Of a stretch of DNA of 64,000 bases, positions 2,551-38,730 are shown one piece after another. The DNA comes from a phage. Made by a program: the position numbers and the translations under genes. Location: the sequence record PZ386980.1, one strand, 5' to 3'. The first letter of the stretch is position 1; every line of letters starts with the position of its first letter. The notes under the pieces are model-generated. The model searched no databases, was not told where the DNA came from, and saw only the letters and a list, made by a program, of their open reading frames with translations.

Positions 2551-3083
2551 TGAAATTTTTGTTTTGTTTTAAAATTATTTAATCTTTCTTTATTATCTTT
2601 CCTATTTTTTGCTACTGAAAAATATTTTAATGCCCTTTCTCTAGCAGCATTTCTATTTTGCGGATTTGAATAATACTGTTGAAGCCTTTTTGATATTGTG
2701 TCACTTACATCTTGTTTTATAAAACTATATTCAGCAGCTATTAAATCAACTTCGGCTAAAGATAAATTTTTATATGTTTTTCCTGACATCATTCTATTTA
2801 AAGCATTTAGCATTTTTCCATTTTTACCTTTTGCTAATAAGAAGTGTGCTTTAAAATGATTAAAATGACTTAAATTAACTAAATTCCATGTAGATTTTAA
2901 ATATTCAGGAAATATTGATTTAGGAAGCACGTGGTGTGCTTCCGTTTTACCTGGAGTTTTAACAGTTGAATTCACAGAAATAAAATTAATGTAAGACTTG
3001 GCGTCTTCTTCACTCAACGCTAATTTTTCAACTAATTCCTTTATTAAAAATTCATCATTAATGTCAAGTTTAAAATTCTTCAC
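2457..3083 (-). CDS. Freestanding HNH homing endonuclease (mob-like), N-terminal catalytic portion
   Basis: 208 aa; motif EAHHVLPKS...NLVNLSHFNHFKAH fits HNH (HH...N...N...H); GTG start overlapping TGA stop of the upstream ORF; basic C-terminal half. Confidence 0.6.
   Translation of the reverse strand: MKNFKLDINDEFLIKELVEKLALSEEDAKSYINFISVNSTVKTPGKTEAHHVLPKSIFPEYLKSTWNLVNLSHFNHFKAHFLLAKGKNGKMLNALNRMMSGKTYKNLSLAEVDLIAAEYSFIKQDVSDTISKRLQQYYSNPQNRNAARERALKYFSVAKNRKDNKERLNNFKTKQKFQWLQGNGLITKKIKLNTKRLFVLLYQNLNIK
3048..3067. repeat. Direct repeat copy A (aaattcatcattaatgtcaa) at the 5' end of the HNH ORF
   Basis: 20-nt perfect match to 3251..3270, similarity extends about 16 nt further; gives both ORFs a shared DINDEF N-terminal peptide. 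Confidence 0.8.
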
Positions 3084-3343
3084 AAAAGATTCCTTTTAAT
3101 GTATCTTTTAGACCATTCTATCATATCATCATAATCTAAAAAGTATTCATCAAATTCAGCCATGCAAACAACGCCTTGTGCTGTTTTTGATGTAATATAA
3201 ATTATTCCAACATATCTAGAATCTTCTTCGGTATAATCAATATTTGCTATAAATTCATCATTAATGTCAAATGTCGAAAACTTCACAGTATGCATCCTTA
3301 ATACAAGATACAGCCATATCTCGTAATGATTTAGGTGTGTCAT
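3080..3343 (-). CDS. Hypothetical protein (start uncertain; internal ATG at 3295)
   Basis: ORF track; contains FSTFDINDEF peptide duplicated at the start of the HNH ORF; overlaps neighbours. Confidence 0.4.
   Translation of the reverse strand: MTHLNHYEIWLYLVLRMHTVKFSTFDINDEFIANIDYTEEDSRYVGIIYITSKTAQGVVCMAEFDEYFLDYDDMIEWSKRYIKRNLL
3251..3270. repeat. Direct repeat copy B (aaattcatcattaatgtcaa)
   Basis: Perfect 20-nt match to 3048..3067 on the same strand. Confidence 0.8.
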
Positions 3344-3530
3344 TATCTAAAATGTTGAAGTTAAAAGATACAGCCCAGTCAGTGCAGACCGTAACCTTTT
3401 TAATACAATTATCTTCAACCTCTAACGGTTCAAACCAATATTCAATAATTTCTTTATGCCCAATATCATCTTTTACTTCGCATTCAAAATGCTGACTCAT
3501 CATAACATTTTTAAATTCATCAAAAGTCAT
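3267..3530 (-). CDS. Hypothetical small acidic protein
   Basis: ORF track; ATGA-type overlap with gene 47 stop. Confidence 0.45.
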   Translation of the reverse strand: MTFDEFKNVMMSQHFECEVKDDIGHKEIIEYWFEPLEVEDNCIKKVTVCTDWAVSFNFNILDNDTPKSLRDMAVSCIKDAYCEVFDI

Positions 3531-34303: not shown

Positions 34304-34322
<19 letters not shown>

Positions 34323-34792
34323 TCAGTGATAAAGTTATTTAAATTTTGAGTATATTTCTTTTCATCAAAAATCTTTTGTTGTCTGCGTAGCCGCCATGGC
34401 ATTTCAATGAACGTGTACCATATCCCAGATAATATTGCTGCAGTAAAAATATTAACAAGTATGGTTAAAAGAATCCAATCTCCTATTCTGTCCATTGGAT
34501 TTTTTATAAAAAAGTAAAATACGAATGATGTCACAGGAAGACTAATAATATACCACAGAATCATAATTTTATCTGTGAACCAATCAGCGTTCGTTAACTT
34601 AGCGCGACCATTATGAATACACACGAATTTATCATCTGTTATAATAGATGGCTTAGCTGCTTGATATCCCATTCTAAACTCCCTAATCAACAAATTTTTC
34701 ATATCTTCGGAACAACCATTCCAGTCAACTCTATCAACTGAAATGCCATCATCCCCATCATCTAAATCATACCAGCGAGTTTTTAAAATCAT
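34304..34792 (-). CDS. Membrane protein, CRK-tail family member
   Basis: 162 aa; two hydrophobic helices; ends FITECRKLK. Confidence 0.55.
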
Positions 34793-35163
34793 TTAATTTT
34801 CCTACAATCACTCACAAACTCTTCCATTGATTCTTTTTCAATATAAGACATGTAGCTATTATATTCCTTTAATTGTATTTTGTAATCTTTTTTTCTTTGC
34901 CAATTTATTTTAAAATTATCATAATGAAAATATAACATGGTACCAAAGAATGAAAATAATGAAATCGCTATAGTATAATGAAGTTCACTCCAAACTTCTA
35001 TTATATCTATTATACCGCTGACGTTACTACGGATGTTTAAAATAAGACAGTCAATTAACAATCCAAAAAGACTACCCGCAAGAGCTGCAGCCAACGCTAC
35101 AGCAAAAATTAAAAATGACTCAGGAAGAGAATATTTGACTTTATTTAGTTTTGGCTTTTGCAT
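34789..35163 (-). CDS. Membrane protein, CRK-tail family member
   Basis: 124 aa; two hydrophobic helices; ends FVSDCRKIK. Confidence 0.55.
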   Translation of the reverse strand: MQKPKLNKVKYSLPESFLIFAVALAAALAGSLFGLLIDCLILNIRSNVSGIIDIIEVWSELHYTIAISLFSFFGTMLYFHYDNFKINWQRKKDYKIQLKEYNSYMSYIEKESMEEFVSDCRKIK

Positions 35164-35558
35164 CGCGATTCCTTAACAAATTTCATAATTTCATCAAATT
35201 CATGCGCAGCAAGTTTAAGCTGATGTTCCTTTTTAATCTTTTTACACTGAGCTTTCCAATCACGTACACGTTTACGATAGTGTCTTCCTTGATACCAATA
35301 TCCTATCCAATTTATAGGTACTAATAAAAGCGGAACTACCAACGGAAGAATTAGTGTTGCTCCAAATATTGCACCAGATTCAATATCAGTCATAACGTCT
35401 ATAACCATTCCAGCAATCACCAGAATCACAAATGATACAACTACCACAGGACCTATTAACACATCAGTAGAAATTATCTGACGCTTTAATTCATACTTCA
35501 ACGGTTTACTTGGAAGGTATAGTGATGGTTTTGACATATTCTCTACATTCCTTAACAA
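35145..35558 (-). CDS. Membrane protein, CRK-tail family member
   Basis: 137 aa; two hydrophobic helices; ends KFVKESRCKSQN. Confidence 0.55.
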   Translation of the reverse strand: MLRNVENMSKPSLYLPSKPLKYELKRQIISTDVLIGPVVVVSFVILVIAGMVIDVMTDIESGAIFGATLILPLVVPLLLVPINWIGYWYQGRHYRKRVRDWKAQCKKIKKEHQLKLAAHEFDEIMKFVKESRCKSQN

Positions 35559-36114
35559 ATTTTTCTAATAATAAATCGCTTTCAAAATTGGGATTTTCTA
35601 CGAATTTATCAAAAAGATCATCGACAATAGTTAAGATATTCTTTTTACTAAGAATACGTTTATTTTCATATTTTGTTTCAGAGTCAACTATAAGAGTAAA
35701 GAAATATTTCTTGCCCTGAAATTTTACAGTAGTATCAATATAGAATAAATTTGACTTTTGTAAATTACGTTTAAACCATGCATCACTTAAACTATAAACG
35801 CCAAGATAATCATAATCGTCGTTTAAATAACAGACCGTCCATTCAGGAGAAACAAAATCAGTAAATTCAACGTCAAAATCGCATGTTAATAAATGAATTG
35901 ATTCAATACTGTTAATAAGTATTCCAGGACGTATTAAAGACTTTTTACCTCTAAAAAATCTTCCAGAAAGACTTTCAACAGTTTCATATGAAGAACCCCA
36001 ATAATAATTACGTCCTTCTGCCATACGTTTAAGAGCATTTAATAATTGGTCTGGAACATCAACCTGTCTTTGGAACTCTTCAAACATTGAATTGAAATCA
36101 CTTTGCATTTTCAT
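35506..36114 (-). CDS. Hypothetical soluble protein with related C-terminal motif
   Basis: 202 aa; C-terminal region EKFVKECREYVK. Confidence 0.5.
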   Translation of the reverse strand: MKMQSDFNSMFEEFQRQVDVPDQLLNALKRMAEGRNYYWGSSYETVESLSGRFFRGKKSLIRPGILINSIESIHLLTCDFDVEFTDFVSPEWTVCYLNDDYDYLGVYSLSDAWFKRNLQKSNLFYIDTTVKFQGKKYFFTLIVDSETKYENKRILSKKNILTIVDDLFDKFVENPNFESDLLLEKFVKECREYVKTITIPSK

Positions 36115-36134
36115 TCCTACTTACTCCAAGTAAT

Positions 36135-36150
36135 AGGGGCCGAAGCCCCT
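36135..36150 (-). terminator. Stem-loop GGGGC-UUCG-GCCCC after PspA-like gene
   Basis: aggggccgaagcccct directly after stop; no clear U-run. Confidence 0.4.
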
Positions 36151-36155
36151 TATCA

Positions 36156-36749
36156 TTATTTCAGAGAATTAATATATTCCTGAACATCGGCAGAGGTAGT
36201 TTCAACCCCAGAAATATTACCATTAAAGGTTTCAACTCGAGCAAGAGTATCTTCAATATCAACCTTAGTCAGTGCTGCAATTTCAACTACATCATCAGCA
36301 GTACTAATTCCAAGGGCATTCGCGGCGCGAGTTTCACGGATATATTCCAATTTAACTGCAAGTTCTTGGCGAGCATCATCTAACTCAACTACTTTCTTGG
36401 CAATTTCAATTCGCATTTCAGCATAACCATCAGCTTTAGTAGTCAACTGCTCAGCTGTTCGACGATATAGTAAACCAAGTTTAGCATGCATTGTTACATC
36501 TTGACCTTCCGAAAGGAGCTTGCGAATTTCACGCTCTTTTGATTCGGCCTGCTTATTCTTTTCGACAATAAGTTCACGAATACGCTTTTCTTCATTAATA
36601 GATTTAACAGAAGCAGTTTTTAGATCTTTAATTTTATCAAGCAATTTTGCTGCTGCGGCAGTATACTGCTCTTCAACAGATAGATTTTTAGCCATAGCAG
36701 AACCAAGTTTAGTGCGAATAAACTCAACAATTTTCTTCAGTGTGTTCAT
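36156..36749 (-). CDS. PspA/IM30-like coiled-coil protein (tentative)
   Basis: 197 aa, almost entirely heptad-like charged helix; pattern resembles phage-shock protein A; by eye only. Confidence 0.4.
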
Positions 36750-36792
36750 AGTATTTCCTTAGGTTGATTAGAAATTAAAATCTGCAGAAGAA

Positions 36793-37326
36793 TTATATCA
36801 TGCTACTTAAGAGATGTAAACTATTTTTAATTTTACAAATTCGTTCAGCTTCTTCAACAGCGGCAGTGATAATGCTTTTAGCTATAGGAGTACTAATATT
36901 AGTAGCTTTTACACTTAACACGATTTCTTTATCTTTACCAGGCCAACCCCACGATTTTTCACCATGAGTGCCTTTAATTACAGCAGACACCTCAAGTGAG
37001 CATCCATTATCGCATGTTTTTACATTAACAACCCAAGTGTCACTTTTCTCAACCGGTTTATCCCAGTAAATATTAAGAATACGTGGGACATCAAATTTAG
37101 CAGGGCAAATCTTAACCGTAAGACCTTCGCTTTCTAGCCAATTAATAAGAGGGCGTTCATACATGCGGCGATGTGGGCTTTGAACTCGACAAGCTTTGTA
37201 CCCATTGCTTGCGGCTTCACTAAGCTCTTCTAATACATGCTTTTGCATTATTGATAAGATACCATCAAAAGATTTTTCGGAAGTTTCATTCAGTTCGGTA
37301 TAAAGAGACATAACAGTTTTCCTCAA
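36793..37326 (-). CDS. Hypothetical protein
   Basis: ORF track (177 aa). Confidence 0.5.
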   Translation of the reverse strand: MRKTVMSLYTELNETSEKSFDGILSIMQKHVLEELSEAASNGYKACRVQSPHRRMYERPLINWLESEGLTVKICPAKFDVPRILNIYWDKPVEKSDTWVVNVKTCDNGCSLEVSAVIKGTHGEKSWGWPGKDKEIVLSVKATNISTPIAKSIITAAVEEAERICKIKNSLHLLSSMI

Positions 37327-37367
37327 ATTATAGGCTCATAATATCTCAATCATGAGCCTATGTAAAC

Positions 37368-37631
37368 TTATTTCATATTATTGAAATATTCTTCTGCGAT
37401 TTCGTCGTTATCATGGTAAACTTTAGAAGACAGTTTAACATAACCTTCAGCAGTGAACATGTTAATCACAACCTTTACAGTATACCACTGACCATCTTCA
37501 TTACCCATTACTGCGTAAGTTTCAAACATCGGATGATCAGGACCGATAACTTTAATATCATTCACTGTACGACCAAAATCTTCTGAAACACATTTCATAA
37601 AGAAGTTGAACAGTTCACCGTAATTATCCAT
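37368..37631 (-). CDS. Hypothetical small protein
   Basis: Trimmed to first ATG (GGAGAA Shine-Dalgarno); downstream of early promoter. Confidence 0.5.
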   Translation of the reverse strand: MDNYGELFNFFMKCVSEDFGRTVNDIKVIGPDHPMFETYAVMGNEDGQWYTVKVVINMFTAEGYVKLSSKVYHDNDEIAEEYFNNMK

Positions 37632-37671
37632 TTCATTCTCCAAGTTGTTTTCTGTATCAGTAGTTGATAGT

Positions 37672-37730
37672 TGTATAGTACCATAGAAGAACAGGGATGT
37701 AAACAGTTTTGTGAAAAAATTTTTAAAAAG
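37672..37730 (-). promoter_or_regulatory. T4-type early promoter with conserved leader
   Basis: UP element, -35 GTTTAC, -10 TACTAT, ACAACTATCAACTAC leader. Confidence 0.55.
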
Positions 37731-37833
37731 TTTTGGGGAATTCTAGGGCAGGGAGGGGAAATCAAAGGATAGGATAATATATTATAAAGGGTAGAAACTA
37801 AATGATGTCTAGAGAGGCCTGGAAAGGCCTAGA

Positions 37834-37868
37834 TACCAAAAAGCCCCAACCTTTCGGCTAGGGCTAAG
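37834..37868. repeat. 35-nt direct repeat, copy 1 (hairpin-forming) just 3' of ip gene
   Basis: taccaaaaagccccaacctttcggctagggctaag; 32/35 identical to 38393..38427. Confidence 0.75.
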
Positions 37869-37872
37869 AATG

Positions 37873-38346
37873 TTATTTGATTTGTTTAGCAGACCAAATG
37901 CGGTCTTTAATAATTTTTTGAATGTCTTCAACATACTCAAGAGAGTGAGCATGTGGGTTATCTTTGAAACTATAAGCACGAGCTAGTTTTTGGCCTTCAG
38001 TTTTGATTACTAAAAGCTCTTTAAGGATAGCTTCATATTTGGAGATAATTCCTTTAACAATATTTTTCTCTTGTGCGACTTTAGGATCTGCTTTAGGAGC
38101 AGGTTTACCCGAAGCCTTTGCAAAAGCAGCGCCAGTAGCAACTAAACTTTTCCAGGCCATACTAACTGCATTTCCCGTAAATCCTTCCGCTTTCATGTCG
38201 CGTGCGAACTGGAATCGCGATTCATCAGAAGCATCTTTGTAAGAATATTTACCCGCTGCAATGGCTGCTTTTGCGACAGCTTGAATTTCGGTGCTAGATG
38301 CTTCATTTAACACCGCTTCATTTAAAAATTGAGTATATGATTTCAT
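37873..38346 (-). CDS. Internal (head-packaged) protein with capsid-targeting sequence
   Basis: 157 aa; N-terminus MKSYTQFLNEA; Ala/Lys-rich; flanked by direct repeats; TATAAATA late promoter upstream. Confidence 0.7.
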   Translation of the reverse strand: MKSYTQFLNEAVLNEASSTEIQAVAKAAIAAGKYSYKDASDESRFQFARDMKAEGFTGNAVSMAWKSLVATGAAFAKASGKPAPKADPKVAQEKNIVKGIISKYEAILKELLVIKTEGQKLARAYSFKDNPHAHSLEYVEDIQKIIKDRIWSAKQIK

Positions 38347-38386
38347 CTTATTTCCTGTTTTAATTCGTGGATTTAATATACTACTA

Positions 38387-38394
38387 TATTTATA
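38387..38394 (-). promoter_or_regulatory. Late promoter TATAAATA for ip gene
   Basis: Exact TATAAATA on minus strand ~40 nt upstream of start. Confidence 0.5.
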
Positions 38395-38427
38395 CCAAAA
38401 AGCCCCAACCTTTCGGTCGGGGCTAAG
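38393..38427. repeat. 35-nt direct repeat, copy 2, 5' of ip gene
   Basis: taccaaaaagccccaacctttcggtcggggctaag. Confidence 0.75.
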
Positions 38428-38439
38428 CCTTGCGGCAAC

Positions 38440-38730
38440 CTTGTCGGGGTTCCACCTGCTAAGGCAAGTGTTTGTACGAAACGCCGGGATTCGAACCCGG
38501 TTATCAAGCAGTTGACGCTACTCAATATTTTTAAAAGGCCATATCTCGACCATATCCGAACGTTCCGTCAAAAACGCTACTCGGCTTACGGCAAAGATAT
38601 TTCCTCGAATCGATAATTCGGTGCGCCGTTTCTGCTGTGATATAAGGGGCATTAACAAAACATAAAGATTTATTAATGCCAGTCCTTAAACAGGGAACAT
38701 CAGTCCGACGACTTACCGGTAGCGACCCGG
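38440..38730 (-). ncRNA. Candidate stable RNA region (tRNA-like T-arm, several hairpins)
   Basis: Non-coding, GC-richer than surroundings; CCGGGTTCGAATCCCGG T-arm-like element at 38482..38500 without a full cloverleaf; position resembles T4 species 1/2 RNA genes. Confidence 0.25.

Follow-up and report, generated by a model that had tools for sequence, protein, structure and literature searches.

e.6 of T4-type phages, most likely a strongly diverged PspA/IM30/Vipp1-type protein within the ESCRT-III superfamily

The closest described relatives of the phage protein e.6 are found in the PspA/IM30/Vipp1/LiaH family (PF04012; structures 4WHE, 7ABK, 6ZVR, 7O3W). PspA owes its name to phage shock and is transcribed from a stress-induced sigma-54 promoter. 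For gp163 of the Klebsiella phage Metamorpho, a homologue of T4 e.6 from the same gene family, a 2021 genome announcement (PMC7862958) reports an HHpred probability of 99.9% with E. coli PspA (4WHE_A). The similarity of e.6 and PspA is thus already known; the announcement devotes one sentence to it and does not go into architecture, distribution, expression cassette or function. Beyond PMC7862958, our literature search found no mention of e.6 as PspA-like, no functional or other experimental study of e.6 and likewise none of a PspA encoded by a phage. Here, we add (i) a reversed-profile coiled-coil control showing that the match is specific, (ii) a bridge to the Pfam threshold via family members from Ackermannviridae, (iii) a helix-by-helix comparison of the architecture including a shortened alpha5 region and a putatively shared C-terminal motif, and (iv) the structure of the expression cassette, i.e., a 3' hairpin conserved by position but not by sequence, with Psp partners absent.

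We studied the gene within a window of 64,000 nt of phage DNA (sequence record PZ386980.1); the coordinates of all features are compiled in Table 1. The initial annotation had described a charged, helical 197-aa product. The respective ORF is found on the minus strand, and its product contains 33 K+R and 34 D+E residues (34% charged) and is predicted by AlphaFold2 (AF2) to be helical at 169 of its 197 positions (86%). T4 e.6 (UniProt P39224), a gene on record since the early 1990s, encodes a product that is 100% identical (tblastn); it is listed as msp3 in the old T4 record L13089.1. The window bases 35000-38500 are 100% identical to the phages RB51 and RB68 (Tequatrovirus), where the same CDS is annotated as 'e.6 hypothetical protein' within the gene order e, nudE, e.2, e.3, e.4, e.5, e.6, followed by tRNA genes. 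The ORF is a genuine conserved gene. By tblastn, we find it in 1107 phage records, and the hosts of the respective phages include Escherichia, Klebsiella, Shigella, Aeromonas, Enterobacter, Yersinia and others.

Table 1. Features of the e.6 locus and of related loci. Positions refer to the window unless another locus or record is named.
Feature	Position	Strand	Basis or remark
e.6 CDS	36156..36749	minus	ATG-to-TAA ORF, 197 aa + stop; most likely a divergent PspA/IM30-like protein
Residues 2-22, amphipathic helix, predicted equivalent of PspA/Vipp1 alpha0	36684..36746	minus	AF2; aligns to PspA 1-22
Residues 25-145, predicted alpha1/alpha2-3 hairpin, ESCRT-III/PspA core	36315..36677	minus	AF2 and alignments
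Residues 152-175, predicted helix alpha4, ends in conserved xVxTFxG	36225..36296	minus	AF2, pLDDT 50-65
Residues 187-197, predicted short C-terminal helix, motif [DE]-phi-x-x-Y-[LIM]-x-x-L-K	36159..36191	minus	Family alignment
Early (sigma-70 type) promoter of e.6	36792..36820	minus	Scored 11/12 with TG
-35 element TTTACA	36820-36815	minus	Sequence
-10 element TATAAT	36797-36792	minus	Sequence
Shine-Dalgarno AAGGA of e.6	36756..36760	minus	6 nt before ATG, read from sequence
C(UUCG)G-type hairpin GGGGC-UUCG-GCCCC	36135..36150	minus	Begins 5 nt past the e.6 stop
Ribosome-binding site GGAG of e.5	36121-36124	minus	Just 3' of the hairpin
e.5	35506-36114	minus	Directly downstream of e.6
e.4	35145-35537	minus	
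e.3	34789-35163	minus	
e.2	34304-34792	minus	
Array e.5-e.2	34304-36114	minus	Genes overlap start-to-stop
Upstream gene, 177-aa ORF RB32ORF130c (phrog_6869)	36793-37326	minus	Occupies the place of T4 e.7
Terminator-like hairpins flanking RB32ORF132c	37842-37865 and 38401-38424	minus	Near-identical
RB32ORF132c, 157 aa	37873-38346		Between the two hairpins
Regions with hairpin 3' of e.6 homologues	36111-36158	minus	Window
	L088 3586-3632; L089 3445-3485; L087 4107-4150		
	L005 6610-6665; L003 6607-6655		
RB43 e.6 in reference NC_007023.1 (L089)	2860-3447		Annotated as 294 nt only
Ackermannviridae genes downstream of the PspA-like gene	L003 6650-7210; L005 6661-8293; L087 4147-4722		

On the level of the single sequence, PF04012 is absent from the hmmscan matches of e.6 (Pfam, E <= 10), which comprise only six weak coiled-coil families, i.e., the protein's own score does not reach the gathering threshold of 33.9 bits. 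Likewise, phmmer yields no PDB match for the single sequence, and there is no NCBIfam match, that is, the cut-offs of the PspA/LiaH equivalogs are not reached. We searched 1.84e9 representative proteins with a profile of the e.6 family and obtained 45 clusters, of which nearly all full-length members are ~200 aa long. Profile comparisons are based on a close alignment (A1) of 31 sequences and a broad alignment (A2) of 39 sequences, the latter reaching down to 18% identity. Searching the PDB with A1 reports Vipp1 entries at E ~1 only. For A2, the top seven chains are all Vipp1 or PspA (E from 1.1e-4 to 9.4e-4), and the alignments are collinear from residue 1 to ~146 in both proteins.

A link to the Pfam family is also given by individual sequences, since 5/39 members of A2 match PF04012 on their own. 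P0188 (39.0 bits) and P0186 (35.1 bits), which both belong to the e.6 family and come from phages of the Ackermannviridae, lie above the PF04012 gathering score and match the close e.6 profile with E values of 3e-20 and 3e-21, respectively, in the search of 1.84e9 proteins. With the NCBIfam model of LiaH, P0188 scores 16.5 bits (cut-off 380).

Next to these searches, A2 was aligned by hhalign to a joint alignment of enterobacterial PspA (all at least 80% identical) and Synechocystis Vipp1, which results in a probability of 92% (91.9%; E 7e-7, 171 columns). A global alignment pairs e.6 1-197 with PspA 1-214 at 92.6%. The signal needs both A2 and the PspA+Vipp1 template, i.e., A1 versus a single PspA sequence reaches a probability of only 0.6%. 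Searches for more diverse PspA sequences brought up Enterobacterales only. Given that the template profile is thus shallow (Neff ~1.8) and that the published HHpred value is 99.9%, the true probability is probably higher than computed here. As a control, we reversed either profile, which preserves composition and periodicity. The probability drops to ~1% (0.9-1.1%, score 18), and the match is thus not a product of generic coiled-coil composition or heptad periodicity.

The lack of any PspA-family match, or a similarity limited to generic coiled-coil composition, is what the initial annotation had named as refuting its own proposal of a PspA/IM30-like pattern; neither applies. The proposal itself is borne out by the top PDB profile matches, the hhalign probability and the structural matches given below. 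The profile comparison with the PspA family, which had been suggested as a check, does give a PspA-family match, namely P0188 and P0186 above the PF04012 threshold, in agreement with the published HHpred result. Identity to the PspA/IM30/Vipp1/LiaH family is 13-18% (~13-14% to host PspA), and homology with PspA/Vipp1 is visible at profile level only; at this level, we are highly confident of it. We conclude that e.6 most likely belongs to the ESCRT-III superfamily as a far-diverged representative of its PspA/IM30/Vipp1 branch.

The architecture was assessed with an AlphaFold2 model built on A2 (pLDDT 81.8, pTM 0.65), which places helices at residues 2-22, 25-80, 86-145, 152-175 and 187-194. 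In this model, the helix order is that of alpha0, alpha1, alpha2-3, alpha4 and alpha5 of PspA/Vipp1 with nearly equal lengths. That is, e.6 and the PspA family share a length of ~200 aa and are collinear end to end. The first helix is amphipathic in both, and on its sequence it is presumed to be the membrane anchor. Its hydrophobic moment is 0.45 (E. coli PspA 0.42, Vipp1 0.57, e.6 family mean 0.40) with a net charge of +3, and it is followed in the model by a helix break at residues 23-24, again as in PspA/Vipp1. Also in common is a hairpin of two ~58-residue helices with its tip around residue 82. In e.6, it consists of helices 25-80 and 86-145 with the tip at 81-85, and it is collinear with Vipp1 1-147 and PspA 1-145. 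Confidence is high here, with pLDDT values of 90-98 across residues 31-130 and in the 80s toward either hairpin end. The 'EDP' hinge of the PspA family is replaced by N-x-S-x-E.

Toward the C-terminus, e.6 and PspA/Vipp1 appear to share an ARxExF-like end of alpha4 (hhalign pairs ARVETFN of e.6 with ARFESFE of PspA) and a final phi-x-x-x-L-x-x-L-K. In between, the two differ, since ~20 residues of PspA's alpha5 region are absent in e.6 between ARVETFN and the C-terminal motif, which is preceded by a disordered linker. The motif of the C-terminal helix is the best-conserved one of the family, with Y192 among five nearly invariant positions. In the global hhalign alignment, it stands opposite the C-terminal D-x-I-S-E-Q-L-A-x-L-K of PspA/Vipp1 (in PspA, D-D-A-I-S-E-Q-L-A-Q-L-K), with a stretch of 12 residues of e.6 opposite DDAISEQLAQLK; taken alone, the C-terminal region is not significant in hhalign, and AF2 confidence there is low. 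We also considered the C-terminal D-V-x-E-Y-I-x-S-L-K as an MIM1-like peptide for an AAA+ partner, a reading that was dropped because PspA and Vipp1 themselves appear to end in the same motif.

The conservation of Y192 behind a disordered linker, the alpha5 region ~20 residues shorter than that of PspA and a knockdown without phenotype (see below) would also fit a protein of drifted function, i.e., a soluble, non-membrane coiled-coil scaffold or adaptor whose C-terminal Y-L-x-S-L-K helix docks a partner. We consider this quite unlikely, given that family members as distant as 18% identity still have the cationic amphipathic helix at the N-terminus and hairpins of exactly these lengths, and that the C-terminal motif is aligned with the corresponding motif of PspA.

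Structural comparison supports the assignment to the PspA branch. When searched with Foldseek against the PDB, the top 13 matches of the e.6 model are all Vipp1/PspA chains, six of them at E < 1e-3, and an earlier, weaker model results in the same ordering. ESCRT-III proper (Snf7/CHMP, archaeal CdvB) has the helical-hairpin core in common with e.6, and CdvB2, CHMP1B and Snf7 are among the weaker structural matches (Foldseek E ~0.1 or worse). No significant sequence match of e.6 to ESCRT-III proper was found. In contrast to the latter, alpha2 and alpha3 are fused in e.6, as they are in PspA, and a Vps4-type partner is absent. The differences to the PspA family, besides hinge and alpha5, are scores below the Pfam and NCBIfam thresholds, transcription from a phage early sigma-70 promoter instead of a sigma-54 promoter, and carriage by virulent phages that are without PspBC, PspF or LiaI partners.

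Nearly all inspected records label the gene as 'hypothetical' or 'host specificity protein', and its PHROGs family (phrog_1203) is listed with function unknown. The label 'host specificity protein' is found for e.6 homologues in several GenBank/UniRef records. Taken literally, e.6 would be a virion protein. Besides the annotation strings of some records, nothing speaks for this reading, whereas both promoter and RNA of e.6 are early and the protein is without similarity to tail or fibre proteins (Pfam, PHROGs, PDB). We regard its chance as practically negligible, and the label appears to be a propagated mis-annotation without support from sequence, expression timing or homology.

The genomic position of e.6 varies. 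In T4-type phages, the gene is located between e and the tRNA genes. It adjoins nrdH in Aeromonas phage 44RR2.8t and is found between nrdD and nrdG in RB43. Ackermannviridae harbour the divergent branch with scores above the Pfam threshold, e.g., as ORF51 of Kuttervirus SJ3, which sits between a gp41-like helicase and a DNA ligase. Since promoter and 3' hairpin are kept across these differing neighbourhoods (T4-type, 44RR, RB43, Kuttervirus), e.6 behaves, as far as can be read from the sequences, as an autonomous cassette in which the gene is enclosed by an early promoter of its own and a hairpin on the 3' side. For RB43, the reference record annotates e.6 as 294 nt only, and the N-terminal half can be read in another frame. 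The resequenced HE858210.2 aligns in one piece over residues 6-200. The reference NC_007023.1 may thus contain either a frameshift or an error of sequencing.

With regard to expression, the placement in an early region made by the initial annotation holds for both promoter and transcript. The promoter (TTTACA-17-TGaTATAAT) is a strong one, has a 17 nt spacer with extended TG and lies 42 nt upstream of the ATG; its -10 element overlaps the stop codon of the preceding gene. The same promoter, GTTTACA...TGATATTAT, is annotated upstream of T4 msp3/e.6, despite the different upstream gene there. That is, the early promoter is retained at the junction although RB32ORF130c replaces e.7. In published T4 omics data (PMC9697503 supplement), the e.6 transcript belongs to the early class and the protein, which was detected, to the 'middle' class.

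Also the UUCG stem-loop noted behind the gene is present, namely as GGGGC-UUCG-GCCCC 5 nt past the stop codon. The record L13089.1 already annotates it as a putative stem_loop, and PMC5931544 gives it as a predicted terminator. The 51 nt around the hairpin have an MFE of -14.5 kcal/mol (z = -2.1). A U-tract is missing, and the GGAG ribosome-binding site of e.5 comes directly after. Among the six e.6 loci inspected from Straboviridae and Ackermannviridae, all (6/6) show a GC-rich hairpin 4-12 nt past the stop; the hairpin sequences differ, folding energies of the short downstream regions range from -14.5 to -20.2 kcal/mol, and only the hairpin of RB43 is followed by a U-tract. No Rfam match was found in window positions 35900-38700. 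Because the hairpin is conserved in position without being conserved in sequence, it may well be a functional element, with mRNA stability or read-through attenuation as suggested roles. The GGAG of e.5 is a motif that the T4 endoribonuclease RegB cleaves in early mRNAs. The e.6 ribosome-binding site AAGGA is without GGAG, such that the mRNAs of the two genes could face different fates.

We also studied the genes around e.6. Apart from one chance-level match, e.2-e.5, the 177-aa upstream ORF and e.8 match no Pfam family at E <= 0.01, and none of them has a Psp- or Lia-type domain. Downstream, e.5-e.2 overlap start-to-stop and share the tail motif F-[IV]-x-[ED]-[CS]-R (e.5 EKFVKECREYV, e.4 MKFVKESRCK, e.3 EEFVSDCRKIK; also present in e.2). 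Outside this motif, their pairwise similarity is marginal. One or two TM-like segments are found in each of e.2, e.3 and e.4 and none in e.5. Judged by sequence, the four genes appear to be paralogues that are arranged in an array and encode small membrane proteins. The candidate of an e.5-like partner that travels with e.6 is unsupported, given that the downstream genes are non-homologous across T4-type phages, 44RR, RB43 and Kuttervirus (BLAST, phmmer, PHROGs). They fall into four different PHROGs and have only a short C-terminal motif in common; several of them encode small membrane proteins.

Behind the PspA-like gene of Ackermannviridae come a gene for a protein of 186-197 aa with an N-terminal membrane anchor (phrog_11433, 'membrane protein') and genes for smaller paralogues, which have a C-terminal ...SI[LV]xRAR... 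motif in common. Homology of these downstream proteins to T4 e.5-e.2 is not detectable. Further upstream of e.6 in the window, two near-identical terminator-like hairpins (AGCCC..GACCGAAAGGTTGGGGCT, then TTTTTGG) flank the ORF of RB32ORF132c. The RB51 record describes this ORF as 'flanked by 34 bp imperfect direct repeat'; in RB68, the region carries the annotation of rnaC. Judging from its sequence context, RB32ORF132c appears to have been inserted between two copies of a small-RNA 3' end.

T4 shuts off host transcription. In addition, the host psp operon is activated by T4 only weakly or partially, unlike by PhiX174 (transcriptome, PMC12795941). Because of both effects, the host would be unable to mount its Psp response, and the phage would thus supply its own effector, e.6. 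From this, we infer a functional model of e.6 as a phage-supplied stabiliser of the inner membrane, to which we give an even chance of being right. Here, e.6 would be expressed soon after infection and bind to the cytoplasmic face of the inner membrane via helix alpha0. Once membrane-bound, it would polymerise by hairpin packing and by means of its C-terminal helix, like PspA and Vipp1, and the polymer would seal proton leaks and preserve the proton-motive force. In doing so, e.6 would stand in for the sigma-54/PspF-dependent Psp response of the host. It may protect against tail puncture, superinfection, overload with phage membrane proteins and depolarising host defences, and may prevent premature triggering of the holin.

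Within a CRISPRi-ART screen, T4 e.6 (listed with unknown function) is scored 'Not Fit' (PMC11879866 supplement), which we read as no measurable fitness cost of e.6 knockdown under laboratory conditions. The role of e.6 would therefore be an accessory and probably conditional one, i.e., of benefit at high multiplicity, during lysis inhibition, under envelope stress or in the presence of membrane-acting defences. Such a conditional benefit fits the gene's dispensability in the laboratory.

The link to the Psp response could also be regulatory. E. coli PspA itself acts as anti-activator of PspF, and e.6 retains the hairpin region aligned with PspA 25-145. A mimic or decoy that binds PspF, PspB/C or PspA and that way blocks or hijacks the host response is thus conceivable. 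However, ~13-14% identity to host PspA makes specific co-assembly or PspF binding unlikely, host transcription is in any case shut off by T4, which activates psp only weakly, and the whole family has kept the amphipathic alpha0, which PspA requires as an effector but not as a regulator. We thus consider such a role very unlikely. Altogether, the available data disfavour the decoy, the drifted scaffold and the 'host specificity protein'.

A further alternative keeps the PspA-like membrane activity but changes what it was selected for, i.e., e.6 would be a counter-defence specialist against abortive-infection effectors that depolarise or perforate the membrane, and not a means of general upkeep. 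An early, dispensable, accessory gene at variable positions within hyperplastic regions, which is typical of host-interaction genes, agrees with this, as does its wide spread in two virulent phage families of Enterobacterales and Aeromonas. On the other hand, e.6 matches no PADLOC or anti-defence family, no host-range phenotype has been reported, and its presence in 1107 phage records is a broad conservation unlike that of most, narrowly distributed anti-defence genes. As a sole explanation, we rate it as unlikely. Taken jointly, the membrane stabiliser and this counter-defence variant of the same activity are a good deal more probable than otherwise.

More tentatively, and as a reading that we hold to be rather less likely than not, the stabiliser model can be extended to both phage families. 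Straboviridae (T4-type) and Ackermannviridae (ViI-type) would carry an ESCRT-III-superfamily repair polymer as an autonomous early cassette that replaces the Psp response disabled by the phage and keeps the cell energised. The latter might be achieved by avoiding premature holin firing, by sustaining lysis inhibition and by blunting abortive-infection effectors that depolarise the membrane. The e.6 polymer might thereby cooperate with the small membrane proteins whose genes directly follow its own.

The immediate practical value of this study is a corrected annotation of e.6. If e.6 is a working repair polymer, T4, the best-studied virulent phage, would have carried an unrecognised ESCRT-III-superfamily protein for decades. 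With its 197 aa, it would then be a compact variant of PspA for structural studies and provide a simple genetic system to investigate how phages keep the inner membrane energised after host shut-off.
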